Positions 15,936 to 46,993 of a stretch of DNA of 64,000 nt are shown here, piece after piece (within the stretch, counting starts at the first letter, position 1; the number at the start of each line of letters is the position of its first letter). Both the position numbers and the translations under genes were made by a program. Origin of the DNA: Bilabrum cf. latius (lineage: Eukaryota); NCBI GenBank assembly GCA_965178125.1, contig OZ237740.1:496001-560000 (forward strand), in the 5' to 3' direction. The notes beneath the pieces were generated by a model, which saw only the letters and a list, made by a program, of their open reading frames with translations, was not told the origin of the DNA and did not search any database.

Positions 15936-15950
15936 CTTACCGTCTGGTTG

Positions 15951-21908: not shown

Positions 21909-22010
21909 AAAGAAACTTTCGATAGGTTTTGTTGTGTGTGATTTTCTCAATACGTTATTATCGGGACTTTCGGAAAAGGATCTTCATTCTACCAGACCTC
22001 TTCTCATACA

Positions 22011-23420
22011 ATGGCTGGAGTCGCAGGAGCACCTGAAGCCGATAAATCCAGTCATTCAAGTGACGGCAGGAAGGTGAGCGCCACTTCTCATGCGGATGAT
22101 TGGGTGGATGAATCGCTGATTGCAGACGATGGATGCGAAGCCGTCTCAATCGGTGATGTGAAGTGGGAAATGTTGAAAACTCGCATGATTGGATTCAACA
22201 CTTTAGATCATGTGACTGGCATGCCGGAAGGGTGCGCCCTGACCAAGGTGTGCACGTTCGATGGGGAGAAGCTCGAGGTTTTCGATACTTCGTCTGGCAA
22301 GGTGGTCGCCACGATCAAGCTTGAACATGAAGGAGACACAAACTACGACATGTTCTACATTCCCCGATCTGGCATCTTCACATTAATCGACGCGAGGGTA
22401 GACCACGTTAACCTGCACAAACTCGAAGCAACCGAGCTGCCTGGCTCAAAAGGCTACTGCTCCAGGCCCGGAGTACTTGATCGTGCATCCGGCGACCAGC
22501 TGCGCCCATGGGCAAATTTCGAGATGTACTGCTATTCAGCAACGACTGGTGCTAAGACCACGATCGAGGCAGCAGAGGTGCAGGCCACCGTTCCGCTCGA
22601 ATCTGAGCTTCTGGAACGCAAGCCGCTCGTTACCCGAGTCCACAGGACGCTGACGGAGCCCATCAGGGGCATGTCTGTGACAAAGGAGCGTCTCGTTGGA
22701 TGCACCGTCCCAGCACACTACATCAGGCTGCAGGATGGTCGAATCGCAGCATGGACCGATCAAGGGGAGCCGTACGGCGGTCTGACCGTGTGGGACATGG
22801 CGACCAAGAAGGCCCTCTTCGCCGCTGACTGCTTCCTGCTGGAAGACAACCCGAAATGCGAGGACTGGGAAGAGATTTGGGACGACAATGGAGAGACAGA
22901 AGGCACCCTTGTGCAGGTGGGTCCCTCCATGGTGGCCCTACTGTTGCAGAAGCACAAGTACGGCATCGTGCTCATCGACGTTGATCGCATGGAGCAAGTG
23001 GGGCTGGCAGCGGAGGGCGAGCACATCCACCTGGCCGAGGCCGTGCATGTGGAGGGCATGGACCATGCCATGCTGGTGGCTGGCACCGTGAGTCCTGGTA
23101 AACTGCAGGTTTGGTGTCCTGTGGATGGTGACGCAGGTTGGTTCAAGAAGCAGCAGGAGGTTGAGCTCGGCAAGAAGGTGACGGGAGTGACGGCTCTGAA
23201 GGCAATTCCGGGGGGCAAGCTGCTCGTGTCTGCACGTCAGGGGGAGTTCAACGATAAGTTTTTTGAGGACCACCACTTCAAGTGCTTCGAGCTGAAGGGT
23301 GTCAAGGTGAAGCTGTCGGCTGCGACTGAGCCCATTGATGATGAGACTGCTACAGCCGGTGTAGGCGGTAGCATGCTGCTTCAGGCGGTGAAGGCGCACG
23401 CTGAATCTGGTTCTTGCTGA
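22011..23420 (+). CDS. Beta-propeller (WD40-like) protein, 469 aa, copy 2
   Basis: Intact ORF ending TGA, with blade-like segments RLQDGRIAAW, LTVWDMATKK, LQVWCP and VTALKAIPGGKLLVSA. Paralog at 37369-38778. The fold call is by eye. Confidence 0.75.
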   Translation: MAGVAGAPEADKSSHSSDGRKVSATSHADDWVDESLIADDGCEAVSIGDVKWEMLKTRMIGFNTLDHVTGMPEGCALTKVCTFDGEKLEVFDTSSGKVVATIKLEHEGDTNYDMFYIPRSGIFTLIDARVDHVNLHKLEATELPGSKGYCSRPGVLDRASGDQLRPWANFEMYCYSATTGAKTTIEAAEVQATVPLESELLERKPLVTRVHRTLTEPIRGMSVTKERLVGCTVPAHYIRLQDGRIAAWTDQGEPYGGLTVWDMATKKALFAADCFLLEDNPKCEDWEEIWDDNGETEGTLVQVGPSMVALLLQKHKYGIVLIDVDRMEQVGLAAEGEHIHLAEAVHVEGMDHAMLVAGTVSPGKLQVWCPVDGDAGWFKKQQEVELGKKVTGVTALKAIPGGKLLVSARQGEFNDKFFEDHHFKCFELKGVKVKLSAATEPIDDETATAGVGGSMLLQAVKAHAESGSC

Positions 23421-23604
23421 TCCGGAATTCGGATTCCGAATTCCGGACCTGAGAGATTTAGACCAGCAACAAGCTTTACCCCGAGCAGGTCTGCCTTGCT
23501 TTCAATTTAAAATTGTAAATCATGCTACAAGACCTGGCTGATAAATCGCACGTAGATCTATTCGGATCTGATCCGGATTGGAAAAAGCTCATTCTAGCCC
23601 ATCC

Positions 23605-24185
23605 AGTATCTCAAAAGCGACCTCCCATCATGGATGCTGCAGCGCGCCACGCACTCACAGCCCCCTTGCCCCCAGCCCATCTCAAAAGCGACCTCCCATC
23701 ATGGATGCTGCAGTGCACCACGCACTCACGCAGCAACCTTGCTCCCAGCCCGATTCAAAAGCGACCTCCCATCATGGATGCTGCAGTGCACCGCGCACTC
23801 ACGGCCCCCTTGCCCCCAGCCCATCTCAAAAGCGACCTCCCATCATGGATGCTGCAGCGCGCCACGCACTCACAGCCCCCTTGCCCCCAGCCCATCTCAA
23901 AAGCGACCTCCCATCATGGATGCTGCAGTGCACCGCGCACTCACGCAGCAACCTTGCTCCCAGCCCGATTCAAAAGCGACCTCCCATCATGGATGCTGCA
24001 GCGCGCCACGCACTCACGCAGCAACCTTGCCCCCAGCCCGATTCAAAAGCGACCTCCCATCATGGATGCTGCAGCGCGCCACGCACTCACGCAGCAACCT
24101 TGCCCCCAGCCCGATTCAAAAGCGACCTCCCATCATGGATGCTTCAGTGCACCACACACTCACGGCCCCCTGCCCCAAACCCAAC
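23605..24185. repeat. Tandem array of 8 units of 71/73 bp between convergent 3' ends
   Basis: CAAAAGCGACCTCCCATCATGGATGCTGCAG... starts at 23612, 23683, 23756, 23827, 23898, 23971, 24044 and 24117. Confidence 0.92.
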
Positions 24186-24203
24186 CAGAAGTGATGTGAC
24201 CTC

Positions 24204-27200
24204 TCACTTGCAAGTGGCATACACAGTGGATACACTAACACCCTGAATGTCCAGCTTGTAGTCCTGTTCCGGTACACCGACTGCCAGGGCTCGCCTGGAT
24301 GCATCGTAGCGAGCTTGCTCTGCGTCATTCAGGGTTTGATCGGGCGTCGAGAACCAGCCCGAATCTAGATGCCTGTGCTCTCGGACTGCGTTGGCGTACG
24401 CTGTACGAGCTGCCTCCAGCCCGCGCCTGGCATCATCAGCCTCGCTGGCCTTCGTTGGAAGGTAGTGGTCCAGCCACTTCATACCAGTACCACCCGTCGC
24501 CATCACCTGCAGGCACATGTGCGTGCTGGTGTGACGGTGCTTCTGGGTGGTAGGGAACGGCTTCAGGTCTGACTCGACGTGGAAGGGGTGTCCGAAATTC
24601 ACACCAAGCACGGCGCGCATTGCATTCATGCCAACACTTCTGGTCTCCGCCATAGACTCCAGCCGAGGATACAGACTGCTGCCGCGACTCCCGCTGTTGC
24701 ATGCAGAGTTGAACTAAATCAACAGAGGAACTGGTTTGCCGGGCAGCGGCTTGACATACAGAGTCCAGGTGCCTGCCACAGGGAGCCTCTCACCAATTGA
24801 AGTAGCGTCCTCCCCTGGCTCAGATCCAACTGCCGATGTGCCAGCGTCTGTGAACATCGTCAGTGGGGCCACACGATCCACAGACACTTCCAGAAGCATA
24901 GCAGGATTCGCCTTTTTCACCGCGCTCTTTTGCTTGTCACCCCAGCTCAGCTGAATGCCGTACTCATACTGCATCGGTGCATCATCCAGCTGACAAGATG
25001 TCAAGCCTCGCCGCAGCCCGCTCAGCCCATACGACTGCAGCTTGAACGTGTTAGCCACATCGGCCGGATCCACCTTGCGGTAGATCACGTGGACTCCCCC
25101 GATGCTGTCCTCCCGCCCCTACGCACTCGGACTCGGACTCGGCGATGTATCAGGCGACCCCTCCTTGTCGTGCTGCAGCTTGCCAGTCGTGTACACGCCG
25201 GCCTCGGACCGAAGCAGGCTGCCCTCAACCGCGCGGAAGAGCGGCTTCGTCTTGCACTTCTCGCTCCCGATGCTGTGCAGGCCACCCCACACCAGCTTTG
25301 CACCTGTTGCCCCCGGCAGCATGATCTCCACAGGACGCACGTATCCCACTTCCAGCGGCGAGCAGAACGAGGACGCCAGACACACGTGCCGGGCCTGGCA
25401 CAGACCATACGGCTCTGAGTCGCCCATGACACCGCACCTAGGCAGCGGGTGCCTGCACGACCCTCCCTCCTGCTCAGCCTCTTCGCGGTACTTATCCGGG
25501 CAGTAGTCGCCAGTGCCCAGGATCGCATGCAGGGCGCGCTTCCGGATCGATTCGAGCTTAGTCAGCCGGCACGTCTCGCCCAGCAGCGCCTCTTTCCCCT
25601 CGGGCAGCGGCCTGCCGTACTTGTGCTCGAATGACGTGCACTCCAGGCTAGACGGCGGCTGGAACCGAGTGCCGCGGCGCTTGCCGCACGCCAGGTGGAT
25701 GCCGCTGCCATCGCCCCCAGCGGATCCATCAGCCCCTGACTCGCCAGAGACATACGACATGTAGTGTGACACTGAGCTGAGGCACGCTCTGCACGCGTCT
25801 GTCGCCTGCTGGTGGTACTCGTTGACGATCTTGGTGGTGGTGCTGCCGTCCGCATGCCTGTGCTCGTGCTCTGACTCGAACTTGTTCACGAGAGCAAACT
25901 CGGAGTCGTTCAGGTGGCAGGACTTGCGGAAGGCCTCGTGCTTCCTGGCCATCTCGTCGCAGTCCTGCAGCGGGTACGGCTTGGCCTCTGGGAATCCATT
26001 CGCGCTGCGCTCGTTGTGGATCTTGATCAGGTAGTTGAGCACCTCCTCGCAGTCTGCCTTGGGCAGGCCCGTCTCGGCCGACAGCCGCAGCAGCGTGCTT
26101 GCACCGTGCGACGCAAACACGTTGTGCGAGGCCTGCCGAATGCGCTCCTGCATGGCGGCTTCGATGAGGAACTTCCTGGCCTTGGCGGCTTGCAGCACCT
26201 GGGACAGCGGGATGTCCTTGCGCTCGTTGCCGTCGGCGTCCAGCATCTAGGTATCTCCGGACATGAAGCACATCCGGCCGACCGCTTCCATGCTCTCCAC
26301 CCTGCCGCGGCTCGACCGCTTGCCTGCCTCCATCGCTATGCGGGTGCACGCCTCCCAGTCGCCGAAGAGAGCCAGGCCGTGCAGGGCCCAGAACTTCATG
26401 TCCACCACGGCCGGCATCGTGTCCACCGTGGTGGCCCAGCGCTTGAGCCCAGCCATCATCGTCTCGCGGTCCTGCGTGGCGCTGACGAGGCTGGGCTCGC
26501 CTCCCCTGACGCTCACCGTGACGTCTGTGGCGAGCTGAGCAGTGCGCCGAGACTTGCCGGACGACCACGCCGCGCTGAGATCCACTCCTGCCTTGCCCCC
26601 ACTGGAGGCCAGCTCTGCCAGCTGCAGGGCCCGTTGGATGGTGGGCCCGTCCTCGCGGATGGAGCTGGTCTTGTACGAGGTGTCCACGACTTCCTCCCGC
26701 CCGTCCACGATGCGGGTGTACTTGGTGCTGGCGGTGGTGGTGTGGTTGGAGCGGGATGCCGTGAGGATATCACCGACTGAGATGGACTCTGCCGGGTCGA
26801 AGCTGGCCTGCAGGGAGAGGGCGGTGTCGGTGTGCTCGTCCGTGGAGAGCTTCTCGGAGCTGAACTTGCGGGTGACGGTGTACTCCCCTCCCATCGCGAT
26901 GCTCGTGGACACGAGTTCACCATACGTGTTAAGGAATCCAAGGTACTGATCCTGTACCCAATCAGGGACAGAAGCCCACAACTTCTGGAGGCCCTCGCGG
27001 CCGAGCGCCTTGCCAGGATAGAAGTCTTTGATGTACTCCACAGCATTGGAGGTGACGCGTAGTTGCAGAACAGCTCTCTTGAACTCATCCGTAAGCAGCG
27101 TCTCGTCAAGCACCAACTGGCACTCAATCGTTTCAAGTGCATCGTCAGTGGCTATTCCGATATCAAGGGGCCCTGCTCGTACTTCATGTGGCAGTAGCGG

Positions 27201-28054
27201 CGTAGTTGATCCATCTTTCCTGGCCTTATCCAGGCAGCCGACAGCGTAGATGCTCTCTGGAACACTCAGTGAATGCGTCAAGATGGTGCGGGTGGTAGAA
27301 ACGGTAGTCCCTTCATTAGCAGACTGCTGCGAAGAATCTGAAGACGTTGATGCGCTTATTCCAGCTACAATTGGACCTAAAGCGGCGCTGAGTCCGAGCT
27401 TGGTAGCGCGCTACGATGCCACATCGACGGCATCGCTACAGTGCTGCGCAGTACTGCTCGAAGTTGCCGTTGCCCTCCTCTACAGGTCAACCTGCGCAGC
27501 CATAAAGCAATTGAGGTTGCATCATTCTAGTCGTTTTTATTCATTTCATTTTCCAGTAGGCAGAATTCCGAACGTGGCTCTAATTTGTAGGCAGTATGAC
27601 GAGTGTAATGTTGCGCGCATTTCTTTTATTCGGATTTGGTTCTTGCGACCAAATTGTGGGCGCGCGCGCCCGGAAACATCGGGGGATCCGCATCATGGCT
27701 CCCAATGCGATCAATCGGCTCGAAATACAAACGAAGCAAGCTTACATCAATTCAAATATGATACTTAGCTCAAATTCTGTATAATCAAGATCTCACATAA
27801 TCTGGGACCCACACCATCCCCGTCGGCGGCAAAAAGTTACATTTTCCAGCAGCAATCGCTGTATTTTGTAGGACTTGACCGAGCTTGTAGTCCGGAAAAC
27901 CGGTTTTTCCGATTGAAAGAGTTGAAAATGATGATCCTATGGCGTCCAAACCAGATGCTGGCTTGCAGAGCTGGGCTGACCGCAATAGTTCATCTTCGGT
28001 AGCAGCTCGCACCTTGGTGCATGTAAGGGCAATCACAGCCAGCAAATAGTACAT
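24204..28054 (-). CDS. Secreted MACPF (perforin-like) protein A, ~1181 aa, with a Cys-rich C-terminal region; copy 2
   Basis: Exon 1 28054-27797 (signal-peptide-like MYYLLAVIALTCTKVRAA...VPDY), intron 27796-27492 (GTGAGA...GCGCAG, phase 0), exon 2 27491-24204 with 5 TAGs, ending TGA. MACPF-like motifs: EFKRAVLQL, YLGFLNTYGELVSTSIAMGG, VSVRGG, WATTVDTMPAVV. Confidence 0.8.
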
Positions 28055-28343
28055 ATCTGCTGCAAAACGTTGAACAGGAGGCAATTTGAGACACCTGCGT
28101 GCTTCAAGCTGCAAATCTGTCAGAGTTGTGGTTACAATTTGTCAACAGCATTTCCAGATTCGGAGCTGTCCAGGCGATGAGCAGACCTGTTTGCTCCACC
28201 TGCAGCTATTTCCAACCACTAGCTGGGATTATAACGTCCATCTGGAAAGCATGCAGCTATTTTGTAACAATACAGTGCACTTGAAAGCTGCAAGGTGGCC
28301 GTGGCCAGGTGATGCAGGAATTGGCCAACGCCACCGGCTCTTC
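28055..28343. promoter_or_regulatory. Putative shared bidirectional promoter of the MACPF pair (289 bp)
   Basis: Short, lower-GC spacer between the two inferred ATGs, conserved at 43115-43403. Confidence 0.5.
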
Positions 28344-31300
28344 ATGCTGGCAGCTATTTTACTCTGCATGGCCCCGCTGGTCCGCTCGAAAACAACCAAG
28401 GGGCTCAATCATACCATTATTGGTATGCATGAGCTGGGTAGAGGGCAGTCTGAGTGGACTCAAGATCCTATTCCGTCAATCCTTCTGTGAGCTCGCTCGA
28501 TACTACACACACCATAAATCAAGAAGCTTTTCGACGCAATCCGAACGCCCGAGTAATCTACTTAAATGATTTGGCGTCTACTACCTACGTTCAGCTCCTG
28601 TATTCCGTGTGTCGCAGGCTGTAGTGTGACGTGACAGCTGAAAAATCTCTGGGCTTCCTGTCGCTGCAACTCTTGCAAGGCAGCAATTCTCATGAGGCTC
28701 TTTAGTCTGCAGCATCCGGTATGATGCGTACAAGGGCTACTACGTACGATCCCCCAGCGACGCAGTGCACGGCTCTCGATCACCCCCTTCTGCAAGGCCA
28801 GTTGCTACCCCATCATGTGGCCTTCCACCAGATGTCCCTCGCAACCTCAGAAAAAGACTGCCGGTCTTCCGACAGGGCAGTCAAAGCTTCAACCTCATCT
28901 TCGTACACGATTGGACTGTCTGGTATGATCCCAACCCCTGTACTGACGCTCGACCTGGGGTTCTCGGTGTCCAGCAGCCACTCACTCGAGACTAGCACAG
29001 CCACTCAAGCCCGTGTTGTTTCAGTGTCAGAGACTCTCGAGACATACGGATTGAGCTTGCAGGGCCTTGCATTGACTCCTTCGTGTGAACAGAAGCAGGG
29101 AAGCGGCATGGCATGCGTGTCTGGATCATCCTTTCCCCTCAAGCAGCAGTACAAGCAGGCGGTTGAGTCGTTGCCAAGCCCACCGTCATGTTTGGAGAAC
29201 AGCACCGAGAAGCTACCCGCGAGCGGCCTAAACCTTATGGGGCTGCATTTCCACCACAGCAGAGGTACAACCATGGTAGTCGCCACGGTCCTCGGCGGCA
29301 AGATCTCACTGGTTCAGAGCTTCCAGCAGAACGAACGGGACGAGAATGAGGAGAGCGAGCAGTCCTATACCGCCGAGGTGTCCATGGAGAAGCTGTTAAC
29401 GACAACGACAGACATTGCAGTGTCAGAGGCAACTACTTCGCATCATTCTACTGTGTCAGATGGAGCCGGCGGAACCATCGAGCATACAACTGAGACAAAG
29501 GTCGTAGCGAGCCAAGAGACTGGACCTGAGGTGGTCAACGGCGACCGAGATTCTGCGGGCAGCCAGTACGCCAAAGGTGAAGCGGCAAAAGGGCTTGATT
29601 CCGTCATGACTGTGGCCAAGGGGGCAATGGACGCTGCCAGGGGGGCACACCTTAAGCTGCAGTTCGGCATGCAGTCAAAGCAGTCCAGGTCTTCCGCAGC
29701 AAGCGATGCTCTTGATCGTGTTCAAACAGAGGTGTCTGGAGGCATCGTTGGGCTGACCTCAGTGGCGCTCAGCCCTGAAGGGGGCGTCAGCGGGTCTGAG
29801 GCCGCATCGGCAGAGATTCATGGAGTGTCTCACTGGGTGGGGTCCGTCCAATCCGGTGGCACACCCCAGAGCCGTACCACGCAGAGCTTGCCCGTGGCAA
29901 TCGTGGACGAATCAGGATGCACCCCTGCCAACAGCCTGGAAATGATGCTTGCCGTGGAGAACAAGCAGTGGTGGCGAAAGGAAGCCACGGACCCCTAGGA
30001 GCAGCCTATCCAGGACCTTTCAGCGCCAGATGAGTCCAGCTCTTCGGAAGAAGGCGAGGCCGGTGGCAGCGACTCCAGTCCGCGAGCACCAGAAATTGGC
30101 AGCCTCGAGCAAGACGAAGATGGCAAGACCGATGCTGGTGAACAGATCGTGCCAGATGCATTGCTGCAGACAGCAGTGCGTGGGCACACAGAATCGGCGC
30201 TCGACCTGGCCTAGAAGGTGTTCGAAACAGTCCACCAGGACGGTAGCGCCAGCAAGCCTCTTCACAACGTGTTGAAACAGGCCGCCAGTAGCAGTTTGAG
30301 CAGCGCCCACTCCATCCGCTTCAAGAACTTCGGCACCTTGCTGCAGTCTGCAGCTATTGCCACGAGTCGGAATGGAGGGGAGTCCTGCAGGTCACTGCCG
30401 GGAATCGCCCAGACTGCAACGAACATCCAAGTCCTCGAAGACATCGGCCTGATGTGCTGCCGCGGCGGAGTCCACTGCTTGCCACGCGATCGTTCAACTG
30501 CAACGATGAAAACTGCAATGCGCGCGGAGCATGCAACTGCCTCGGAGTGGGTGGCGGCAGCCGGTGAGGCCAACGGCGAGAACGGCACGGTCACCCGAGC
30601 GCTGCTGGTTGCCGCCGCCGTGGAGCTGAGCACGATCGCGATTCCAAGCGACGCTGTACTGGTCGTGTCGGCGTCGTGCTGGCAATCTGAAGCTGTTGAG
30701 GCCACGTCTGGCATCGGAGACCGAACGGTGGTGGCGTACTATGACCAGGACTTGGAGACGTGGCTTGTGGCAGACAAGGATGCAACCCGGCTGCTGACGA
30801 TGACGGAAGCGTTCGGGTGCCTCCCAGCTGTGGACTTGTCCGAGGACGCCGAGGCTGCAATCCTGCTGCCCCGCAGCAAGACAGAGCACTTTGAGCCGAA
30901 GGCCTACGTTGCCGCGCTGCTCGCCTCTCGTTTCGTTGCCGAAGGAGACACCGAGCTACTACGCACGCTCATGACACGGGGCGTGATCAATTGGGCAGAC
31001 ATGGGCCAGGAGCAGAGTTTCGCGCTATAGGCCTACCAGCAGGAGCTAGAGGCTGCCGGTATTCTCCAAGCTAGTAGCAGCAGCAGCGGCTCGGAGCGGA
31101 GCGCGATCCTGCTGCAGTCACAAGGAGCCTCGTTCTCCTCGTCCGTGCGGGTGGAACGAGGTCAGCACCGGAGACTGAGGCGGAATCGAGCAACGCGGCA
31201 TGGGCATCTCCGGCACGATGCCGGGCATTCTGTCGCAGTCCAGCGTGGATTCCCTCATGTCAGGGTGCTGCAAGCGTCGCTGCGCGGGGTCGGGAGCATG

Positions 31301-31921
31301 CTACACGACGAAGACGTCAGTTTTCCTGCCTCATACATCGACACCCTCGGCGCCGAGCGAGACCTGAGGTACAACGAGGAGAAGCTGTGGAAGCAGCACG
31401 ACAAGTCGCTCCAGAAGGAGGTCTGCGTGAGCGGCGGCACGCACCGCGTGCTGGCCCGGCGGCAGTTCCTAGCGAAGACCAAGCAAGTGCTCCTTAACCT
31501 TTACAAGCAGCTACGGGTTGCGAACAAACAGGCAGAGCACGTGACGGTGAGTGCGCTCGGTCTCGGCGAAAATCTATGCAAGAGGGATTCTGCACGCACA
31601 GGACGCAGGGGGCGCTCTGGGGTCATCTCCACCCTGGGCACAGCAGGTGGGATCGCTCGGAAGGCAGCTCCTCAGTGTGAGGACAGCGCCGTCATGCATT
31701 CCACGTCCTCCGCCGTCAGGAACATCGCGAAAATGTCCGATGGAGGCTCTAGCACAGCAACAGCTGTGGCAAGCGAGCTTCGGGAGACAGTGATAAGGCT
31801 GGCTAGAGCTCGGGTGGAGGCAGACACCCCGGAGGTGACTACCCCTGGTGGCGAAAGCGCTGGCGCGCACACGCCAGCTCGTGATGCCTAGCCCTAGGAG
31901 CAAGCACAAGCAACAGTTTGA
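28344..31921 (+). CDS. Secreted MACPF (perforin-like) protein B, ~1148 aa; copy 2
   Basis: Exon 1 28344-28486 (signal-peptide-like MLAAILLCMAPLVRS; GMHELGRG), intron 28487-28617 (GTGAGC...TCGCAG, phase 2), exon 2 with 7 TAGs, ending TGA 31919-31921. Motifs: YKQAVESLP, FHHSRGTTMVVATVLGG, TEVSGG, WVGSVQSGGTP. Confidence 0.78.
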
Positions 31922-31933
31922 AGCGTTGGGTTA

Positions 31934-33130
31934 TTTTGACACAGTGGGAGTACGGTGCTGGCTGCAGGGGTCGCAGCAGCGCCTGAGACGGGTGGTCGCT
32001 TTTTGACACCGCGGGAGTACGGTGCTGGCTGCAGGGGTCGCAGCAGCGCCTGAGACGGGTGGTCGCTTTTTGACACGGCGGGAGTACGGTGCTGGCTGCA
32101 GGGGTCGCAGCAGCGCCTGACACGGATGGTCGCTTTTTGACACGGCGGGAGTACGGTGCTGGCTGCAGGGGTCGCAGCAGCGCCGAAGACGGGTGGTCGC
32201 TTTTTGACAAGGAGGGAGTACGGTGCTGGCTGCAGGGGTCGCAGCAGCGCCGAAGACGGGTGGTCGCTTTTTGACACGGCGGGAGTACGGTGCTGGCTGC
32301 AGGGGTCGCAGCAGCGCCGAAGACGGGTGGTCGCTTTTTGACACGGCGGGAGTACGGTGCTGGCTGCAGGGGTCGCAGCAGCGCCTGAGACGGGTGGTCG
32401 CTTTTTGACACGGCGGGAGTACGGTGCTGGCTGCAGGGGTCGCAGCAGCGCCTGAGACGGGTGGTCGCTTTTTGACACGGCGGGAGTACGGTGCTGGCTG
32501 CAGGGGTCGCAGCAGCGCCGAAGACGGGTGGTCGCTTTTTGACACGGCGGGAGTACGGTGCTGGCTGCAGGGGTCGCAGCAGCGCCTGAGACGGGTGGTC
32601 GCTTTTTGACACGGCGGGAGTACGGTGCTGGCTGCAGGGGTCGCAGCAGCGCCTGAGACGGGTGGTCGCTTTTTGACACGGCGGGAGTACGGTGCTGGCT
32701 GCAGGGGTCGCAGCAGCGCCTGAGACGGGTGGTCGCTTTTTGACACGGCGGGAGTACGGTGCTGGCTGCAGGGGTGGCAGCAGCGCCTGAGACGGGTGGT
32801 CGCTTTTTGACACGGCGGGAGTACGGTGCTGGCTGCAGGGGTCGCAGCAGCGCCTGAGACGGATGGTCGCTTTTTGACACGGCGGGAGTACGGTGCTGGC
32901 TGCAGGGGTCGCAGCAGCGCCTGAGACGGGTGGTCGCTTTTTGACACGGCGGGAGTACGGTGCTGGCTGCAGGGGTGGCAGCAGCGCCTGAGACGGGTGG
33001 TCGCTTTTTGACACGGCGGGAGTACGGTGCTGGCTGCAGGGGTCGCAGCAGCGCCTGAGACGGGTGGTCGCTTTTTGACACGGCGGGAGTACGGTGCTGG
33101 CTGCAGGGGTCGCAGCAGCGCCGAAGACGG
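31934..33130. repeat. Tandem array of ~18 units of 67 bp
   Basis: TTTTGACACGGCGGGAGTACGGTGCTGGCTGCAGGGGTCGCAGCAGCGCCTGAGACGGGTGGTCGC with a 67-bp period, starting ~12 bp after the MACPF-B stop. Confidence 0.95.
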
Positions 33131-33276
33131 AGGCTCGCTGAACAACTGTACTCGCTTTATATTCTCTTTGTACGCAATGCACATGGTGGAACCATACATA
33201 CGCCACCAACGTGTCCAGCGCACCAGACCTACAGCAGCAGAGGCCACGGCGTCCGCCCCTTCACGCTACCGTGCCC

Positions 33277-35437
33277 TCATCCGATCATCCCGGATGCCGG
33301 TGATATTCCCCTACAGCGCCTACGGGCAGTGCTTTTTGTATCAGTGCCAAGCATGGATGCTGATGCGTCAGACGGAGGGTAGTCTCTGTCGAACCTGCCA
33401 TTGTCCCACTGCTGGCTCCACTGCTCAGTTATGGCCACCCTGGCGCGTTCTGGCATGGGGGCAGTTGCAACCCCGCCCCTCGACACAGCGCTTCGAACCT
33501 GCCCGGCGGCCCCACGAGAGAACGCATCCGCAGCGGCGGGGTCGTAGGGAGCAGGCTGCCCACCTAAGCTGCAGGGCACGATGGTGCGGGGCATCGGCCT
33601 AGCGCTCTGGGGCCCTCGTGTCACCGATTCCCAGCCCGTTTACCCACCTCGCCCTCAAGCTCTTCACGGTTTCGATTCCGGATGGCTTCCAGGTTCGCTG
33701 CACCCATGGCTAGCTGCGCCGCGCATCGCAGCCGGTGCCTGCCCCTGCCGGATCCAGTGCCGGCACAGGCAGGCCTCCGGACAGCGGCAGCGGACACACG
33801 CCCATCCTCAGCCGCCTGCCCCGAAGATCCGTGCCAACCTCACCGCATTCCAATCTCATGTACTGCATGAGATCCATGCCTTCCCTCCGTGAGAGCACGA
33901 GCCCAGCGCACCCCCACCCCTCGACCACTCGGTACAGGCAAGGCACTCCCCTCACCACGACCCCGTCCCGACCAACCCCAGCACTGCCGTGCGATACATC
34001 CGACCGCTGTGTGGCCCCTGTCTCCACAAGCGCGAAGGCCCTCGCCCTCTCTAGTGCCTGTATCTCGCAGGTCTTCAAGCAAAGGCACCGCCTGCCTCGT
34101 GCTGCGCGCTGTGGTAGCGCCATTCAGCTGGGACCCTGAAGCGCCACCTGGTTTGCAATATCTTGCTCGTGGCCATTCCCAGGATATCAGCCCCACATTT
34201 CCGGATCACTCGAACAGCCCGCAAGTCCAACAATCGGATCAAAGCAGGTCAAGCGAGTCACCCGCCTGCCAGCCCTCGCCCTGCTGCCAGCCCACGGCCT
34301 CCCTGGCTTCTCTCCAGGCAGCAAACGTGGCCCACTTCACCATCACGGACCTAAAGGTGACGCAATCGGGCAGCAGCGGGGGCTCAAGCTCTGCCAGGGT
34401 TCTGATCACCGACTGTGTGGAGGCGTTCTTGTAGTTTCCGGCCATGATGTGCAGGTCCTTGCCCTCCCACTCGAGCTCACTGGCGGCAGCCGCTTCGTTC
34501 GCGATCGACCGCACCAAGCCTTGAACGTCGTGCGCAGTCGCACCGGACAATGCGACAATGTGCGCGTGTGGAAATAGCCAGGCGGCATCTTCGGAGGTCT
34601 GCACCATGCCCAATTCCCCCATGAGCCCGCTGTCGTACAGTAGGCTGGCCAGGTGGTCCCGCCGCCGCTCGTGGGTCCACTCCGACCACGGCGGCGTCCC
34701 CGATTCGGTTGCTGCAGGTGGTTGCGTCATTCCTTGCGAAGTTGCAACCCCTCGCATCGGAAGCGCGACCTACTCCAAGATCTCGTCCGAATCGGCCGCT
34801 GTGTCGTTCGCGAAGTGGTCCTTTGCCAAGCGCACGGTCCGCCTCATCATGTCGTTTACTCCGCCCTGCTTCCTGGCTGCACTCAGCAGAGCCACCAGGG
34901 CCTTGGCGTAGTCGCGGGGCTCCCACCGCCTGTCTGCCTGCATCACAAGGCTGGACGCCAGTGTTTCTTTCCTCAGTAGCGATGGCAGTACGATGCCCTT
35001 GGGGTCTTGCATGCCGACTGCATCGCCGGGGACCGCTCTTCACCTGCTGCACTACCAGTTGCTTCCATGGGACCGCCAGGCATCCCAATCAACGCTCCCA
35101 TGAGGGCGGGCGACAAATCAACCTGGCCAGCACTTGCAGCGAGCTGAGAACACGCCGTCAAGGGGGTCAGCCTCCTGACCAGCTGAAAGAGACCCACGTG
35201 ATCGAGTGGGATGCGGTCGCTGGCCAGCCTGGCACTCTGCAGACGAACGAATGCAATCGGCTGCCTAGGCATAATATGTCCAATCAGCATGCTGGAAGCA
35301 GCGTTAATGCCCTGTATGCCCAGTCCATGGTATCGCTGCTTTGCCTTGAGCCACGCGTCTGCATTCTCGGAGAGGGGAAAAAGGGAGACGAGCTCCAGAA
35401 CTCCCTTTTGGTTTTAGAGATCCCTCTACAGGTCAAC
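33277..35437 (-). pseudogene. 3' fragment of gene X, copy 2 (5'-truncated, frameshifted)
   Basis: Homologous to ~47600-49733. Has a small frameshifting deletion near 35030, a deletion near 34067 and a 45-bp insertion at 35371-35415. Homology stops at 35437. Confidence 0.8.
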
Positions 35438-37200: not shown

Positions 37201-37368
37201 AACTGTGTCCTAGTTGCTAACACTTTGGAGAGGATGAACCTCACTACAGCCGCCTCAAAGTCCAGTTAGCGAAATCTCAGGCCGGTTGTAACCACGTATC
37301 ATAGAAGAAGACATGAACTTGCGACTTTCGGAAAGGGATCTTCATTCTTCCAAACTTCTTCTCATACA

Positions 37369-38778: not shown

Positions 38779-38979
38779 TCAGTGGAATTCAGGATTTCAG
38801 ATTGTCCATGATTCCGGAATCCGGATCCGAAAAGTTTTGACCACAAAGGATCAATCCATGGATAGACTGAAGCTTTGCCCCGTGCAGGTTTACCTTGACC
38901 TCGATTGAAATTACGCTACTAGACCTGGCTGATAAACCGCATGAATCCGGATTGCAAGAAGCTAATTCTAGCAAATTGA

Positions 38980-39232: not shown

Positions 39233-39275
39233 ATCATCGTATCCAATCGGGTCCATCTGGTAGTGCTCTGACCTC

Positions 39276-42200
39276 TCATTTGCACGTGGCATACACGGTG
39301 GACACACTTACACCCTGAATGTCCAGCTCGTAGTCCTGTTCCGGTACACCGACGGCCAGGGCGCGCCTGGATGCATCGTAGCGAGCTTGCTCTGCGTCAT
39401 TCAGGGTTTGATCGGGCGTCGAGAACCAGCCCGAATCTAGACGCCTGTGCTCTCGGACTGCGTTGGCGTACGTTGTACGAGCCGCCTCCAGCCTGCGCCT
39501 GGCATCATCAGCCTCGCTGGCCTTCGTTGGAAGGTAATGGTCTAGCCACTTCATACCAGTACCACTCGTCGCCATCACCTGCAGGCACATGTGAGTGCTG
39601 GTGTGACGGTGCTTCTGGGTGGTAGGGAACGGCTTCATGTCCGACTCGACGTGGAAGGGGTGTCCGAAATTCACACCAAGCACGGCGCGCATTGCCGTCG
39701 TCGGGCCGAAGCTTCTGGTCTCCGCCATTGACTCCAGCCGAGGGTACAGACTGCTGCCGCGGCTCCCGCTGTTGCATGCAGAGTTGAACTGGATCAACAG
39801 AGGAACTGGTTTGTGGGACAGCGGCTTGCCATACAGAGTCCAGGTGCCTGCCACAGGGAGCCTCACGCCGATTGTAGTAGCGTCCTGCCCTGGCTCAGAT
39901 CCAACTGCCGATGTGCCAGCGTCTGCGAACATCTTCAGCGGGGCCACGCGATCCACCGACACTTCCAGAAGCATTGGTGGTATCGCCCTTGCCACTGCAC
40001 TCTTGTGATCACGACCCCAGCTCAGCTGAATACCATGATTGTATTGCATCGGTGCATCATCCAGCTGACAAGACGTCAAGCCTCGCCGCAGCCCGCTCAG
40101 CCCATACGCCTGCAGCTTGAACGTGTTAGCCACATCGGTCGGATCCACCTTGCGGTAGATTACGTGGACTCCCCCGATGCTGTCTTCCCGCCCCTACACA
40201 CTCGGACTCGGCGATGTATCAGGCGACCCCTCCTCGTCGTGCTGCAGCTTACCAGCCGTGTACACGCCGGCCTCGGACCGAAGCAGGCTGCCCTCCACCG
40301 CGCGGAAAAGCGGCTTCGTCTCGCACTTCTCGCTCCCGATGCTGTGCAGGCCACCCCACACCAGCTTCGCACCTGTTGCCTCCGGCAGCTTGATCTCCAC
40401 AGGACGCACGTACCCCACTTCCAGTGGCGAGCAGAACGAGGACGCCAGACACACGTGCCGGGCCTGGCACAGACCGTACGGCTCTGAGTCGCCCTTGACA
40501 CCGCACCTAGGCAGCGGGTGCCTGCACGACCCTCCCTCCTGCTCCGCCTCTTTGCGGTACTTATCCGGGCAGTAGTCGCCAGTGCCCAGGATCGCATGCA
40601 GGGCGCGCTTCCGGATCGATTCGAGCTTAGTAAGCCGGCATGTCTCGCCCAGCAGCGCCTCTTCCCCCTCGGGCAGCGGCCTGCCGTACTTGTGCTCGAA
40701 TGACGTGCACTCCAGGCTAGACGGCGGCTGGTATCGAGTGCTTCCGCGCTTGCCGCACGCCAGGTGGATGCCGCTGCCATCGCCCCCAGCGGACCCATCA
40801 GCCCCTGACTCGCCAGAGACATACGACATGTAGTGCGACACGGAGCTGAGGCACGCCCTGCACGCGTCTGTCGCCTGCTGGTGGTACTCGTTGACGATCT
40901 TGGTGGTGGTGCTGCCGTCCGGATGCCTGTGCTCGTGCTCTGACTCGAACTTGTTCACGAGAGCAAACTCCGAGTCGTTCAGGTGGCAGGACTTGCGGAA
41001 GGCCTCGTGCTTCCTGGCCATCTCGTCGCAGTCCTGCAGCGGGTACGGCTTGGCCTCTGGGAATCCATTCGCGCTGCGCTCGTTGTGGATCTTGATCAGG
41101 TAGTTGAGCACCTCCTCGCAGTCTGCCCTGGGCAGGCCCGTCTCAGCCGACAGCCGCAGCAGCGTGCTGGCACCGTGCGACGCAAACACGTTGTGCGAGG
41201 CCTGCCGAATGCGCTCCTGCATGGCGGCTTCGATGAGGAACTTCCTGGCCTTGGCAGCTTGCAGAACCTGGGATAGTGGGATGTCCTTGAGCTCATTGCC
41301 GTCGGCGTCCAGCATCTAGGTATCTCCGGACATGAAGCACATTCGGCCGACCGCTTCCATGCTCTCCACCCTGCCGCGGCTCGACCGCTTGCCTGCCTCC
41401 ATCGCTATGCGGGTGCACGCCTCCCAGTCGCCGAAGAGAGCCAGGCCGTGCAGGGCCCAGAACTTCATGTCCACCACGGCCGGCATCGTGTCCACCGTGG
41501 TGGCCCAGCGCTTGAGCCCAGCCATCATCGTCTCGCGGTCCTGCGTGGCGCTGACGAGGCTGGGCTCGCCTCCCCTGACGCTCACCGTGACGTCTGTGGC
41601 GAGCTGAGCAGTGCGCCGAGACTTGCCGGACGACCACGCCGCGCTGAGATCCACTCCTGCCTTGCCCCCACTGGAGGCCAGCTCTGCCAGCTGCAGGGCC
41701 CGTTGGATGGCGGGCCCGTCCTCGCGGATGGAGCTGGTCTTGTACGAGGTGTCCACGACTTCCTCCCGCCCGTCCACGATGCGGGTGTACTTGGTGCTGG
41801 CGGTGGTGGTGTGGTTGGAGCGAGACGCCGTGAGGATGTCACCGACTGAGATGGACTCTGCCGGGTCGAAGCTGGCCTGCAGGGAGAGGGCGGTGTCGGT
41901 GTGCTCGTCCGTGGAGAGCTTCTCGGAGCTGAACTTGCGGGTGACGGTGTACTCCCCTCCCATCGCGATGCTCGTGGACACGAGTTCACCATACGTGTTA
42001 AGGAATCCAAGGTACTGATCCTGTACCCAATCAGGGACAGAGGCCCACAACTTCTGAAGGCCCTCGCGGCCGAGTGCCTTGCCAGGATAGAAGTCTTTGA
42101 TGTACTCCACAGCATTGGAGGTGACGCGTAATTGCAGAACAGCTCTCTTGAACTCATCCGTAAGCAGCGTCTCGTCGAGCACCAGCTGGCACTCAATCGT

Positions 42201-43114
42201 TTCAAGTGCATCGTCAGTGGCTTTTCCGATATCAAGGGGCCCTGCTCGTACTTCATGTGGCAGTAGCGGCGTAGTTGATCCATCTTTCCTGGCCTTATCT
42301 AGGCAGCCGACAGCGTAGATGCTCTCTGGAACACTCAGTGAATGCGTCAAGATGGTGCGGGTGGTAGAAACGGTAGTCCCTTCATTAGCAGACTGCTGCG
42401 AAGAATCTGAAGACGTTGATGCGCTTATTCCAGCTACAATTGGACCTAAAGCGGCGCTGAGTCCAAGCTTGGTAGCGCGCTACGATGCCACATCGACGGC
42501 ATCGCTACAGTGCTGCGCAGTACTGCTCGAAGTTGCCGTTGCCCTCCTCTACAGGTCAACCTGCGCAGCCATAAAGCAATTGAGGTTGCATAATATTAGT
42601 CAATTTTATTTATATTGTTTTCAAGTCGGCAGTATGTTTGTTTTCAAGTAGGCAGTATGACGAGTGTACTGTTGCGCGCACTTCATTTATTCGGATTTGG
42701 TTCTTGCGACCAAATTGTTGGCGCGCGCCGGGAAACATCCTGGGATCCGCATCATGGCTCCTAATGCGATCAATCGGCTCGAAAATACAAACGAAGCAAG
42801 CTTACATCAATTTTAATATGATGCTTCGCTCAAATTCTGTATAATCAAGATCTCACATAATCTGGGACCCACACCATCCCCGTCGGCGGCAAAAAGTTAC
42901 ACTTTCCAGCAGCAATCGCTGTATTTTGTAGGACTTGACCGAGCTTGTAGTCCGGAAAACCGGTTTTTCCGATTGAAAGAGTTGAAAATGATGATCCTAT
43001 GGCGTCCAAACCAGATGCTGGCTTGCAGAGCTGGGCTGACCGCAATAGTTCATCTGCGGTAGCAGCTCGCACCTTGGTGCATGTAAGGGCAATCACAGCC
43101 AGCAAATAGTACAT
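39276..43114 (-). CDS. Secreted MACPF protein A, copy 3 (~1180 aa)
   Basis: Exons 43114-42857 and 42560-39276 with 4 TAGs; CAG at 39789-39791 where copy 2 has TAG. Indels relative to copy 2 are multiples of 3 in exons only. Confidence 0.8.
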
Positions 43115-43403
43115 ATCTGCTGCAAAACGTTGAACAGGAGGCAATTTGAGACACCTGCGTGCTTCAAGCTGCAAATCTGTCAGAGTTGTGGTTGCAATTT
43201 GTCAACAGCATTTCCAGATTCGGAGCTGTCCAGGCGATGAGCAGACCTGTTTGCTCCACCTGCAGCCGTTTCCAACCACTAGCTGGGATTATAACGTCCA
43301 TCTGGAAAGCATGCAGCTATTTTGTAACAATACGGTGCACTTGAAAGCTGCAAGGTGGCCGTGTCCAGGTGATGCAGGAATTGGCCAACGCCACCGGCTC
43401 TTC

Positions 43404-46400
43404 ATGCTGGCAGCTATTTTGCTCTGCATGGCCCCGCTGGTCCGCTCAAAAACAACCAAGGTGCTCAATCATACTATTATTGGTATGCGTGAGCTGGGTA
43501 GAGGGCAGTCTGAGTGGACTCAAGATCCTATTCCGTCAATCCTTCTGTGAGCTCGCTCGATACTACACACACCATAAATCAAGAAGCTTTTCGACGCAAG
43601 TCGAACGCCCGAGTAATCTGCTTAAATGATTTGGCGTCTACTACCTACGTTCAGCTCCTGTATTCCGTGTGTCGCAGGCTGTAGTGTGACGTGACAGCTG
43701 AAAAAACTTTGGGCTTCCTGTCGCTTCACAACTTGCAAGGCAGCAATTCTCATGCGGCTCTTTAGTCTGCAGCATCCGGTATGATGCGTACAAGGGCTAC
43801 TACGTACGATCCCCCAGCGACGCAGTGCACGGCTCTTGATCACCCCCTTCTGCAAGGCCAGTTGCTACCCCATCATGTGGCCTTCCACCAGATGTCCCTC
43901 GCAACCTCAGAAAAAGACTGCCGGTCTTCCGACAGGGCAGTCAAAGCTTCAACATCATCTTCTTACACGATTGGACTGTCTGGTATGATCCCAACCCCTG
44001 TACTGACGCTCGACCTGGGGCTCTCGGTGTCCAGCAGCCACTCACTCGAGACTAGCACAGCCACTCAAGCCCGTGTTGTTTCAGTGTCAGAGACTCTCGA
44101 GACATACGGATTGAGCTTGCAGGGCCTTGCATTGACTCCTTCGTGTGAACAGAAGCAGGGAAGCGGCATGGCATGCGTGTCTGGATCATCCTTTCCCCTC
44201 AAGCAGCAGTACAAGCAGGCGGTTGAGTCGTTGCCAAGCCCACCGTCATGTTTGGAGAACAGCACCGAGAAGCTACCTGCGAGCGGCCTAAACCTTGTGG
44301 GGCTGCATTTCCACCACAGCAGAGGTACAACCATGGTAGTCGCCACGGTCCTCGGCGGCAAGATCTCACTGGTTCAGAGCTTCCAGCAGAACGAACGGGA
44401 CGAGAATGAGGAGAGCGAGCAGTCCTATACCGCCGAGGTGTCCATGGAGAAGCTGTTAACGACAACGACAGACATTGCAGTGTCAGAGGCAACGACTTCG
44501 CATCATTCTACTGTGTCAGATGGAGCTGGCGGAACCATCGAGCATACAACTGAGACAAAGGTCGTAGCGAGCCAAGAGACTGGACCTGAGGTGGTCAACG
44601 GCGACCGAGATTCTGCGGGCAGCCAGTACGCCAAAGGTGAAGCGGCGAAAGGGCTTAATTCCGTCATGACTGTGGCCAAGGGGGCAATGGACGCTACCAG
44701 TGGGGCACACCTTAAGCTGCAGTTCGGCATGCAGTCAAAGCAGTCCAGGTCTTCCGCAGCAAGCGATGCTCTTGATCGTGTTCAAACAGAGGTGTCTGGA
44801 GGCATCGTTGGGCTGACGTCAGTGGCACTCAGCCCTGAAGGGGGCGTCAGCGGGTCTGAGGCCGCATCGGCAGAGATTCATGGAGTGTCTCACTGGGTGG
44901 GGTCCGTCCAGTCCGGTGGCACACCCCAGAGCCGCACCACGCAGAGCTTGCCCGTGGCAATCGTGGACGAATCAGGATGCACCCCTGCCAACAACCTGGA
45001 AATGATGCTTGCCGTGGAAAACAAGCAGTGGTGGCGAAAGGAAGCCACGGACCCCTAGGAACAGCCTATCCAGGACCTTTCAGCGCCAGATGAGTCCATC
45101 TCTTCGGAAGAAGGCAAGGCCGGTGGCAGCGACTCCAGTCCGCGAGCACCAGAAATTGGCAGCCTCGAGCAAGACGAAGATGGCAAGACCGATGCTGGTG
45201 AACAGATCGTGCCAGATGCATTGCTGCAGACAGCAGTGCGTGGGCACACAGAATCGGCGCTCGACCTGGCCTAGAAGGTGTTCGAAACAGTCCACCAGGA
45301 CGGTAGCGCCAGCAAGCCTCTTCACAACGTGTTGAAACAGGCCGCCAGTAGCAGTTTGAGCAGCACCCACTCCATCCGCTTCAAGAACTTCGGCACCTTG
45401 CTGCAGTCTGCAGCTATTGCCACGAGTCGGAATGGAGGGGAGTCCTGCAGGTCACTACCGGGAATCGCCCAGACCGCAACGAACATCCAAGTCCTCGAAG
45501 ACATCGGCCTGATGTGCTGCCGCGGCGGAGTCCACTGCCTGCCACGCGATCGTTCAACTGCAACGATGAAAACTGCAATGCGCGCGGAGCATGCAACTGC
45601 CTCGGAGTGGGTGGCGGCAGCCGGTGAGGCCAACGGTGAGAACGGCACCGTCACCCGAGCGCTGCTGGTTGCCGCTGCCGTAGAGCTGAGCACGATCGCG
45701 ATTCCAAGCGACGCTGTACTGGTCGTGTCGGCGTCGTGCTGGCAATCTGAAGCTGTTGAGGCCACGTCTGGCATCGGAGATCGAACGGTGGTGGCGTACT
45801 ATGACCAGGACTTGGAGACGTGGCTTGTGGCAGACAAGGATGCACCCCGGCTGCTGACGATGACGGAAGCGTTCGGGTGCCTCCCAGCTGTGGACTTGTC
45901 CGAGGACGCCGAGGCTGCAATCCTGCTGCCCCGCAGCAAGACCGAGCACTTTGAGCCGAAGGCCTACGTTGCCGCGCTGCTCGCCTCTCGTTTCGTTGCC
46001 GAAGGAGACACCGAGCTACTACGCACGCTCATGACACGGGGCGTGATCAATTGGGCAGACATGGGCCAGGAGCAGAGTTTCGCGCTGTAGGCCTACCAGC
46101 AGGAGCTAGAGGCTGCCGGTATTCTCCAAGCTAGTAGCAGCAGCAGCGGCTCGGAGCGGAGCGCGATCCTGCTGCAGTCACAAGGAGCCTCGTTCTCCTC
46201 GTCCGTGCGGGTGGAACGAGGTCAGCACCGGAGACTGAGGCGGAATCGAGCAACGCGGCATGGGCATCTCCGGCACGATGCCGGGCATTCTGTCGCAGTC
46301 CAGCGTGGATTCCCTCATGTGAGGGTGCTGCAAGCGTCGCTGCGCGGGGTCGGGAGCATGCTACACGACGAAGACGTCAGTTTTCCTGCCTCATACATCG

Positions 46401-46981
46401 ACACCCTCGGTGCCGAGCGAGACCTGAGGTACAACGAGGAGAAGCTGTGGAAGCAGCACGACGAGTCGCTCCAGAAGGAGGTCTGCGTGAGCGGTGGCAC
46501 GCACCGCGTGCTGGCCCGGCGGCAGTTCCTATCGAAGACCAAGCAAGTGCTCCTTAACCTTTACAAGCAGCTACGGGTTGCGAACAAACAGGCAGAGCAC
46601 GTGACGGTGAGTGCGCTCGGTCTCGGCGAAAACCTATGCAAGAGGGATTCTGCACGCACAGGACGCAGGGGGCGCTCTGGGGTCATCTCCACCCTGGGCA
46701 CAGCAGGTGGGATCGCTCGGAAGGCAGCTCCTCAGTGTGAGGACAGCGCCGTCATGCATTCCACGTCCTCCGCCGTCAGGAACATCGCGAAAATGTCCGA
46801 TGGAGGCTCTAGCACAGCAACAGCTGTGGCAAGCGAGCTTCGGGAGACAGTGATAAGGCTGGCTAGAGCTCGGGTGGAGGCAGACACCCCGGAGGTGACT
46901 ACCCCTGGTGGCGAAAGCGCTGGCGCGCACACGCCAGCTCGTGATGCCTAGCCCTAGGAGCAAGCACAAGCAACGGTTTGA
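43404..46981 (+). CDS. Secreted MACPF protein B, copy 3
   Basis: Exons 43404-43546 and 43678-46981, offset 15060 from copy 2, with all TAG positions conserved. Confidence 0.78.
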
Positions 46982-46993
46982 AGCGTTGGGTAA

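Follow-up and report, generated by a model that had tools for sequence, protein, structure and literature searches.

The window analysed here, a 64,000-nucleotide stretch of DNA, contains two long, divergently oriented reading frames (24204..31921), and these raise the question whether they are genuine genes, whether both encode MACPF proteins, and whether the two products act together in a single pore. Under the standard reading (table 11) the ORFs of this region do not exceed 425 aa. When TAG is read as glutamine, two ORFs of 1099 and 1066 aa appear, and the removal of one intron per gene yields proteins of 1181 aa (gene A, reverse strand, 28054..24204) and 1148 aa (gene B, forward strand, 28344..31921), in keeping with the original prediction of two products of about 1150-1180 aa. 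Five in-frame TAG codons are present in A and seven in B, and the sole database relatives of B are nine fragments, so the expectation that standard-code annotation would shatter the genes is borne out.

The assignment of TAG to Gln is supported by three observations. At all three positions covered by the fragments P0004 and P0007 (81-85% identical), the TAG codons of B are aligned to Q; one TAG/CAG difference was found between the two genomic copies of A; and TGA serves as the stop in 13 of the 14 ORFs examined, while in-frame TAA occurs in none of the 14. The tRNA scan of the 64-kb window revealed no tRNA reading TAG.

Exon 1 of gene A (27797..28054, reverse strand; 86 codons, ATG at 28054), delimited on the basis of its frame, the splice joint described below and tblastn, encodes a signal-peptide-like hydrophobic N-terminus and the beginning of the predicted MACPF region. 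It is followed by a phase 0 GT..AG intron of 305 nt (27492..27796) and by exon 2 (24204..27491; 1095 codons and TGA), which encodes the remainder of this domain and then a region of approximately 700 aa, outside known families, with a Cys-rich middle. Exon 1 of gene B (28344..28486, forward strand; 47 codons and 2 nt) encodes a hydrophobic N-terminus and an ELGRGQ stretch, which we take to resemble the start of a MACPF domain. The phase 2 GT..AG intron of B comprises 131 nt (28487..28617), and exon 2 (28618..31921, ending with TGA) encodes a diverged MACPF-like region, then an acidic linker, and finally a conserved C-terminal part outside known families.

Contigs of X1 and X3, public sequencing runs that come from two studies, contain both GT..AG joints exactly where they were predicted: the joint in A runs 27489->27795 (skipping 305 nt, CT..AC, cut +2) and that in B 28486->28618 (skipping 131 nt, its short side amounting to no more than 28 letters). 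Furthermore, one X3 contig of 3280 nt is unbroken over positions 28696-31921 of gene B. None of the runs listed as containing the stretch is recorded as RNA, and their labels are conjectural: X1, labelled 'probably DNA', also contains an unspliced contig over the border of exon 1 and the intron of A. X1 and X3 are regarded as RNA on account of the spliced joints themselves. The contigs of runs X4 and X6 continue unspliced through the intron sites. Two other joints within A, 24519->26167 (TG..TG, 21-letter short side, X1 and X3) and 26206->26469 (X3 only), were rejected as introns, since they are devoid of splice-site ends and loose ends occur at the same places. These were treated as chimeric or paralogue contigs.

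A second copy of the pair (39276..46981; A' on the reverse and B' on the forward strand) was identified by self-BLAST and tblastn. Both of its frames are open (ORFs 39276..42572 and 43781..46981), so the pair is indeed duplicated intact. In the self-BLAST, 23899-32393 aligned with 38980-47453 over 8499 columns, 96.3% of them identical, and the duplicated block, which includes neighbouring genes, extends over at least 13 kb. Between the copies, A has 67 synonymous and 45 nonsynonymous changes (pN/pS 0.22) and B has 28 and 12, respectively (pN/pS 0.14), and the most constrained stretch of A is its MACPF part (pN 0.003, pN/pS 0.07). The intron of A differs by 14%, with indels, compared with 0.3-4% at exon nonsynonymous sites. 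Both genes are under purifying selection. Taken together with the long ORFs that are obtained only when TAG is read through and the GT..AG joints at the predicted places, this shows A and B to be genuine, spliced genes; the GC-rich microbial eukaryote that carries them encodes Gln by TAG and uses TGA as its stop.

The N-termini of both proteins resemble signal peptides, as had been proposed: the first approximately 15 residues are hydrophobic (mean Kyte-Doolittle value 2.0-2.6). No later 19-residue window of A reaches a Kyte-Doolittle value of 1.6, and B contains one borderline hydrophobic window (705-731). Since neither protein has a clear later membrane segment, secretion of A and B is the putative outcome. 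The C-terminal regions, of about 700 aa in each protein, were described in the original prediction as unrelated to each other, Cys-rich in A and preceded by an acidic linker in B. BLASTP detected no similarity between the two, 15 of the 27 Cys residues of A fall within positions 567-832, and an acidic stretch does lie C-terminal of the MACPF region of B. Neither the C-terminal pieces nor exon 1 of either gene matched any Pfam family, and an ESM Atlas search with P0010, a homologue of the middle C-terminal domain of B, gave no usable match.

The MACPF fold consists of a bent central beta-sheet between two helical clusters, and the latter convert into transmembrane hairpins. The predicted assignment of A to this family is significant: the Pfam profile PF01823 matches residues 137-377 of P0001 (profile positions 45-196 of 214) with an E-value of 3e-10 and a score of 41 bits, above the gathering cut-off of 21.5 bits. 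Among PDB sequences, A weakly matches complement C9 (E 0.59) and C8 alpha (E 0.79). The motifs YGELVSTSIAMGG, VRGG and RWATTVDTMP, put forward earlier as MACPF signatures, are all present in A. No relatives of A were found in word-indexed searches of sequences with lengths of 604-1924, 235-751 and 30-603, in each of which the 8000 best word-sharing candidates were scored, so that relatives may be missed. The AlphaFold2 model of A exon 2, built on a 2-row alignment, was unusable (mean pLDDT 28.9).

It is very likely that B is a MACPF protein as well, albeit a very diverged one. On this point the original prediction is supported indirectly, through a homologue of B and a weak in-register alignment with A, whereas B itself falls under the Pfam cut-off (E 0.44-0.68, 10.5-11.1 bits against the required 21.5), with the signature part of the profile being matched. 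The homologue, P0006 (38% identity, phmmer E 4.7e-38), matches 137 positions (4-140) of PF01823 with an E-value of 7e-4 and 20.2 bits, narrowly below the cut-off. In an ESM-Atlas feature search with P0006, MACPF clusters made up 26 of the 30 matches (best score 0.95, 186 of 256 features in common) and a further three were thiol-activated cytolysins of the same superfamily; the recognition value of P0006, 1915, lies below the level reached by 91 of 100 known-family proteins. The database relatives of B, found among 1.84 billion representatives, are the nine fragments mentioned above (82-384 aa), which stem from three other contigs and cover residues 2-1055 of P0002. Two of these contigs are Logan assemblies of 5032 and 5592 nt, and the third is an ENA sequence of 7897 nt.

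Between the first Ser/Thr-rich cluster and the xxGG motif, A and B align in register (BLASTP E 0.025; hhalign E 0.035 over 157 columns, with a probability of only 1.4%). They share 17% identity in the aligned MACPF core and are taken to be very old paralogues. The motifs claimed for B, namely RGTTMVVATVLGG, VSGG and HWVGSVQSGGTP, were likewise located. Against the MACPF signature Y/W-G-T/S-H-F/Y-x6-G-G, the sequence of A is Y-G-E-L-V-x6-G-G and that of B is R-G-T-T-M-x6-G-G; spacing and GG are kept, and two of the five leading positions fit in each protein. A B-family profile matched no PDB sequence at E <= 10, and the AlphaFold2 model of the N-terminal 433 residues of B, built on a 4-row alignment, was unusable (mean pLDDT 26.8). 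Metagenome scans with the alignments of B and A returned 381 and 504 pattern matches, respectively, none of which was confirmed by tblastn.

The explanation that we favour, and which as a whole we regard as reasonably probable, is that each gene encodes a MACPF protein predicted to consist of a signal-like N-terminal segment, a MACPF domain of approximately 400 residues and a gene-specific C-terminal region of approximately 700 aa. By analogy with the family, each protein would be secreted and would bind a target surface through its C-terminal region; ring formation by the MACPF domains would follow, with the two Ser/Thr-rich helical clusters unfurling into the beta-hairpins of a membrane pore. 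Pore formation by A and B is proposed here from family membership; many MACPF proteins form no lytic pores (PMC5483515). As the C-terminal regions of A and B differ, the two proteins would more plausibly serve separate targets or conditions than form an obligate complex; co-assembly of the two may occur.

The original prediction further read the pair as a candidate co-regulated, heteromeric two-component toxin, a reading that gains no support from the tests described here. The start codons of A and B are separated by 289 bp (28055..28343), exactly the distance given in the original prediction, and contigs of X1 and X3 enter this spacer from either side, reaching 28215 on one and 28244 on the other. 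The spacer probably contains a shared bidirectional promoter, and both 5' UTRs are presumed to lie within it as well. Co-produced from this spacer, A and B could form one heteromeric MACPF pore, in which one protein binds or nucleates and the other polymerises, as in the complement MAC or the CDCL long and short subunits. We consider this unlikely. It would agree with the fact that paralogues at 17% identity still adjoin each other in divergent orientation, with X1 and X3 each containing spliced contigs of A as well as of B, and with the differing C-terminal regions, which divided roles would predict; heteromeric assembly also has precedent in the superfamily (PMC11952106). The spacer is less diverged between the copies (5 differences in 291 columns, 1.7%) than the synonymous sites (3.5-8%), but gene conversion between the copies would account for this just as well; divergence along the duplicated block ranges from 1.7% to 14%. 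Moreover, the head-to-head layout has no special status, since unrelated genes paired in this way across short spacers are the rule in the window (3911|4455 and 21476|22011, with approximately 540 bp between ORF starts), and the pair was duplicated only as part of the larger block with its neighbouring genes. B has relatives on three other contigs, while none were found for A in the word-indexed searches, which may miss relatives. Finally, A and B are both long, whereas the polymerising CDCL partner has no C-terminal domain (PMC11952106). A CDCL-like division of labour in architecture, with one subunit devoid of a membrane-binding domain, was not observed, as both proteins have C-terminal regions of about 700 aa.

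A bolder version of the same idea, which appears more doubtful still, would see in the locus a binary MACPF weapon, used by a protist that lives freely or as a parasite: ancient paralogues expressed from one bidirectional promoter would form a mixed pore, each contributing a targeting module of approximately 700 aa with an undescribed fold. If true, this would be a complement-like heteromeric attack complex with an independent origin outside animals and bacteria. Co-assembly of A and B would in any event mean that a heteromeric MACPF complex had arisen independently, and the head-to-head layout makes a simple comparison of A, B and A+B worthwhile.

Several animal and plant MACPF proteins have non-lytic roles, and one or both of the proteins considered here might similarly have lost pore formation and act, secreted or at the cell surface, in adhesion, signalling, development, or wall or cyst biology. 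This, too, seems improbable. Such a role would be consistent with the divergence of the MACPF core of B to below the Pfam threshold, with the partial retention of the MACPF signature (YGELV-x6-GG in A, RGTTM-x6-GG in B) and with the conserved C-terminal regions of about 700 aa that dominate both proteins; conserved perforin-like proteins with other mechanisms have been described (PMC5483515). However, two long Ser/Thr-rich stretches can be recognised by eye at the sites of the membrane-inserting hairpins in both proteins, the GG motifs are retained, and the MACPF part, as reported above, is the most constrained stretch of A (pN/pS 0.07 between the copies). It is very unlikely that B is instead an unrelated Ser/Thr-rich secreted protein whose motifs and weak alignments with A arose by chance: its lack of a Pfam family at E <= 0.1, the hhalign probability of 1.4%, the absence of a PDB match to its family profile and the unusable structure model would accord with this, but its clear homologue P0006 matches the MACPF profile (E 7e-4) and has 26 MACPF and three thiol-activated cytolysin clusters among its 30 nearest in the Atlas, and the alignments of A with B follow the MACPF elements in sequence.

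Eukaryotes rely chiefly on MACPF proteins as large-pore weapons, and lineage-specific sets of them are common in protists and mostly uncharacterised. A and B would add to the family two very diverged predicted architectures, each including a large C-terminal region of undescribed fold. The genes of this TAG=Gln organism are represented in public protein collections by fragments only, and families of this kind therefore escape ordinary annotation.

Comparison with known two-part systems reveals both likenesses and differences. In pleurotolysin the MACPF subunit is paired with an aegerolysin, a small membrane-binding protein outside the MACPF family, whereas A and B are both MACPF-like. Pleurotolysin itself (PlyA and PlyB of Pleurotus) forms pores from two parts, one of which is a MACPF subunit (PMC4318580). 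The long and short CDCL subunits of Bacteroidota are related members of the MACPF/CDC superfamily, of which one attaches to the membrane and the other assembles the pore (PMC11952106); these proteins are bacterial, require proteolytic activation and include a short partner without a C-terminal domain, in contrast to A and B, which are both long. The complement MAC (C5b-C6-C7-C8-C9) is likewise composed of diverged MACPF paralogues with differing accessory domains, and the weak PDB matches of A are to its components C9 and C8 alpha; it operates, however, in animal serum and has TSP, LDLa and EGF accessory domains, none of which was detected by Pfam in A or B. Unlike known MACPF members, A and B have no close relative in the searches as scoped above, possess C-terminal regions without a Pfam family and use the TAG=Gln code; no MACPF occurrence emerged when the literature was searched for this family in combination with the UAG code. 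Perforin-like proteins of the MACPF family are also present in apicomplexan parasites. With the eukaryotic MACPF/perforin-like proteins (PF01823), such as complement C6-C9 and perforin, A and B share a signal-like N-terminus, a core of approximately 400 residues, two Ser/Thr-rich clusters and the GG motifs, and, as in many members of this family, an additional long C-terminal region follows the core.

Under the standard or bacterial genetic code, the longest ORF in region 24204-31921 has only 425 aa. Reading TAG as a sense codon, as proposed in the original prediction, replaces such fragments with two large ORFs (1099 aa and 1066 aa), corresponding to the minus-strand gene A and the plus-strand gene B. 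Elsewhere in the 64-kb window (G+C content 50-65%), the same reading yields ORFs of up to 2462 aa. Among the 14 ORFs examined for codon use, which include several duplicate copies, 13 end with TGA and one, itself doubtful, with TAA; summed over all 14, TAG occurs in frame 54 times and TAA never. Glutamine is most likely the meaning of TAG, because all three TAG positions of B covered by two of its database homologues (P0004 and P0007, 81-85% identical) align to Q, and at one TAG codon of A the duplicate gene has CAG. The code therefore looks like one with TGA as a working stop and TAG as glutamine. Sense TAA codons would be expected from the CAA:CAG ratio (approximately 1:4) and none was found in frame, so TAG may have been reassigned alone, without TAA, which is described as rare (compare PMC5304391). 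A scan of the 64-kb window found no tRNA genes.

Each gene contains a single intron. Gene A starts with an ATG at 28054 (minus strand); its exon 1 (28054..27797, 86 codons) is directly followed by the donor GTGAGA, the acceptor ends with GCGCAG, and exon 2 extends from 27491 to the TGA stop at 24206..24204. Gene B (plus strand) starts with an ATG at 28344 and is composed of exon 1 (28344..28486), a 131-nt GT..AG intron (28487..28617) and exon 2 (28618..31921). The two ATGs are separated by 289 bp, exactly as predicted. Both spliced joints were seen in contigs of two public sequencing runs from two studies, X1 and X3: that of A links 27489 to 27795, skipping 305 bases with CT..AC borders (cut +2), i.e. 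GT..AG on the minus strand, while that of B links 28486 to 28618, skipping 131 bases with GT..AG borders, its short side comprising only 28 letters. The unspliced genomic form is present in runs X4 and X6 (one X4 contig spans 27625-30501), and X1 also has an unspliced contig across the border of A exon 1 and its intron; the run types are guesses, X1 being labelled “probably DNA”. A 3280-nt X3 contig is unbroken over 28696-31921, and therefore B has no further intron there. Spliced A has 1181 aa with 5 TAG codons and spliced B 1148 aa with 7, in line with the expected single introns and products of about 1150-1180 aa. Two other joints within A, 24519 to 26167 and 26206 to 26469, are present in contigs of X1 and/or X3 and are not of the GT..AG type. 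The former skips 1647 bases, a number divisible by three, and loose contig ends sit where these joints occur; they may stem from chimeric assembly of the contigs, a further paralogue or a copy that has been rearranged.

Protein A matches the Pfam MACPF profile (PF01823; E 3e-10, 41 bits, cut-off 21.5) over residues 137-377 of its exon-2 translation (profile positions 45-196 of 214) and, on this sequence evidence, is a MACPF protein. Its matches to PDB sequences are faint (complement C9, E 0.59; C8 alpha, E 0.79). For B, no Pfam family was matched at E ≤ 0.1, the best being MACPF (E 0.44) on the signature stretch. The predicted pair of MACPF proteins was thus borne out directly for A, while B itself stays below the Pfam cut-off and its homologue P0006, one of the nine database fragments described below, reaches E 7e-4 (20.2 bits, cut-off 21.5, profile positions 4-140). 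P0006 shares 38% identity with B (E 4.7e-38). In an ESM Atlas feature search, MACPF clusters accounted for 26 of its 30 hits and thiol-activated cytolysins for three more (best score 0.95, 186/256 features in common, with a low recognition value of 1915). A and B align with each other at E 0.025 (BLASTP, 17% identity, 155 columns) and E 0.035 (hhalign, 157 columns, probability only 1.4%), the two staying in register between the first Ser/Thr-rich cluster and the xxGG motif. We consider it very probable that B belongs to the MACPF superfamily. AlphaFold2 models of A exon 2 and of the 433 N-terminal residues of B were unusable (mean pLDDT 28.9 and 26.8, respectively).

With B as the query, exhaustive HMMER searching of 1.84 billion representatives returned only nine proteins, all of them fragments (82-384 aa) from three contigs, one set sharing 81-92% and two sets 31-45% identity with B. 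Jointly they span residues 2 to 1055 of the B sequence P0002; therefore the architecture of B, including the C-terminal region, is, as judged from the alignments, shared by two or more genes that are more distant. A code with TAG as a sense codon leaves such genes as mere fragments in public protein sets.

The N-termini of both proteins consist of about 15 hydrophobic residues followed by polar ones, as foreseen for signal-peptide-like sequences, and no clear membrane segment follows further along either protein, which fits their probable secretion. The C-terminal regions (~700 residues) matched no Pfam family and show no similarity to each other (BLASTP); the middle of that of A is Cys-rich (15 Cys within residues 567-832) and that of B opens with an acidic stretch, which agrees with the way they were originally described. 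By analogy with the family, these regions would bind the target surface, the MACPF domains would oligomerise, and the two Ser/Thr-rich clusters would refold into the hairpins forming the pore.

Within the window there are only two copies of each gene. Self-BLAST revealed that the pair-bearing block (23899-32393) matches 38980-47453 with 96.3% identity, flanked on the A side by 21965-23435, matching 37323-38796 (89%), and on the B side by 32671-35371, matching 46994-49712 (96.5%). Because the matching block extends beyond the pair, A and B were carried along as passengers when a segment of at least 13 kb was duplicated. The pair was indeed duplicated intact: A and its copy differ at 67 synonymous and 45 nonsynonymous positions (pN/pS 0.22), and B and its copy at 28 and 12 (pN/pS 0.14). 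All four reading frames are intact and subject to purifying selection, A and B being two spliced genes under selection. Between the copies, the A intron shows 14% divergence with indels and the inter-ATG spacer 1.7%. Synonymous divergence is 0.13 in the C-terminal third of A (24204-25304), 0.047 in its MACPF part and 0.035 in B, and pN within A is 0.039 in the C-terminal third versus 0.003 in the MACPF part. This unevenness suggests gene conversion over the block centre or a faster-changing A C-terminus.

The copies of an adjoining 469-aa gene without a Pfam family (22011-23420 and 37186-38778) share only 89% DNA identity, far below the MACPF pair. A neighbouring gene has a weak CEP76-like match; like the spliceosomal introns and the genetic code, this indicates a microbial eukaryote. 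A further 10.5-kb block (1-10522 and 48742-59263, 99.3% identity) contains two long head-to-head ORFs, of 1303+ aa and of 2159 or 2462 aa, and its first 971 bases recur a third time at 34405-35371. The window resembles a section of an array in which large units are repeated in tandem, or of collapsed/uncollapsed haplotypes.

Directly 3′ of the stop codons of both A and B there is a minisatellite (23611-24164, 73-bp unit, 7.7 copies, and 31934-33130, 67-bp unit, 17.9 copies, respectively); those of the second pair lie at 38980-39229 and 46994-47453. The A-side and B-side arrays are related in inverted orientation only (minus strand in 149/149 BLAST pieces, 68-78% identity, weak E-values), and thus both genes are followed by one type of array, which has the same orientation relative to each of them. 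Long open frames run through both arrays, on the strand opposite that of the adjoining gene. Another tandem array (12997-15936, 115-bp unit, ~25 copies, 96-98% identity) shows strong strand asymmetry, with AT skew of up to 0.47.

A and B were also proposed to form a co-regulated, heteromeric two-component toxin, which we regard as unlikely. Paralogues this old remain adjacent and divergent, the same two runs carry spliced contigs of both, and heteromeric assembly has a precedent in the MACPF/CDC superfamily, in work on bacterial two-component CDCLs (PMC11952106). However, the window contains two more head-to-head pairs, of unrelated genes (3911/4455 and 21476/22011, ~540 bp between ORF starts), and the duplication covers more than the A/B pair. 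The two copies of the spacer have stayed similar, which favours the toxin reading, but gene conversion can account for such low divergence, because the copies of the block diverge to very different degrees along its length. Moreover, both proteins are long, and word-indexed searches (limited to 8000 candidates each) found no A-type relatives where B-type ones exist.

Among known proteins, A and B are very diverged additions to the secreted MACPF proteins that carry accessory regions specific to a lineage; what is unusual in them is the genetic code, the two C-terminal regions without a family and the head-to-head layout of the paralogues.
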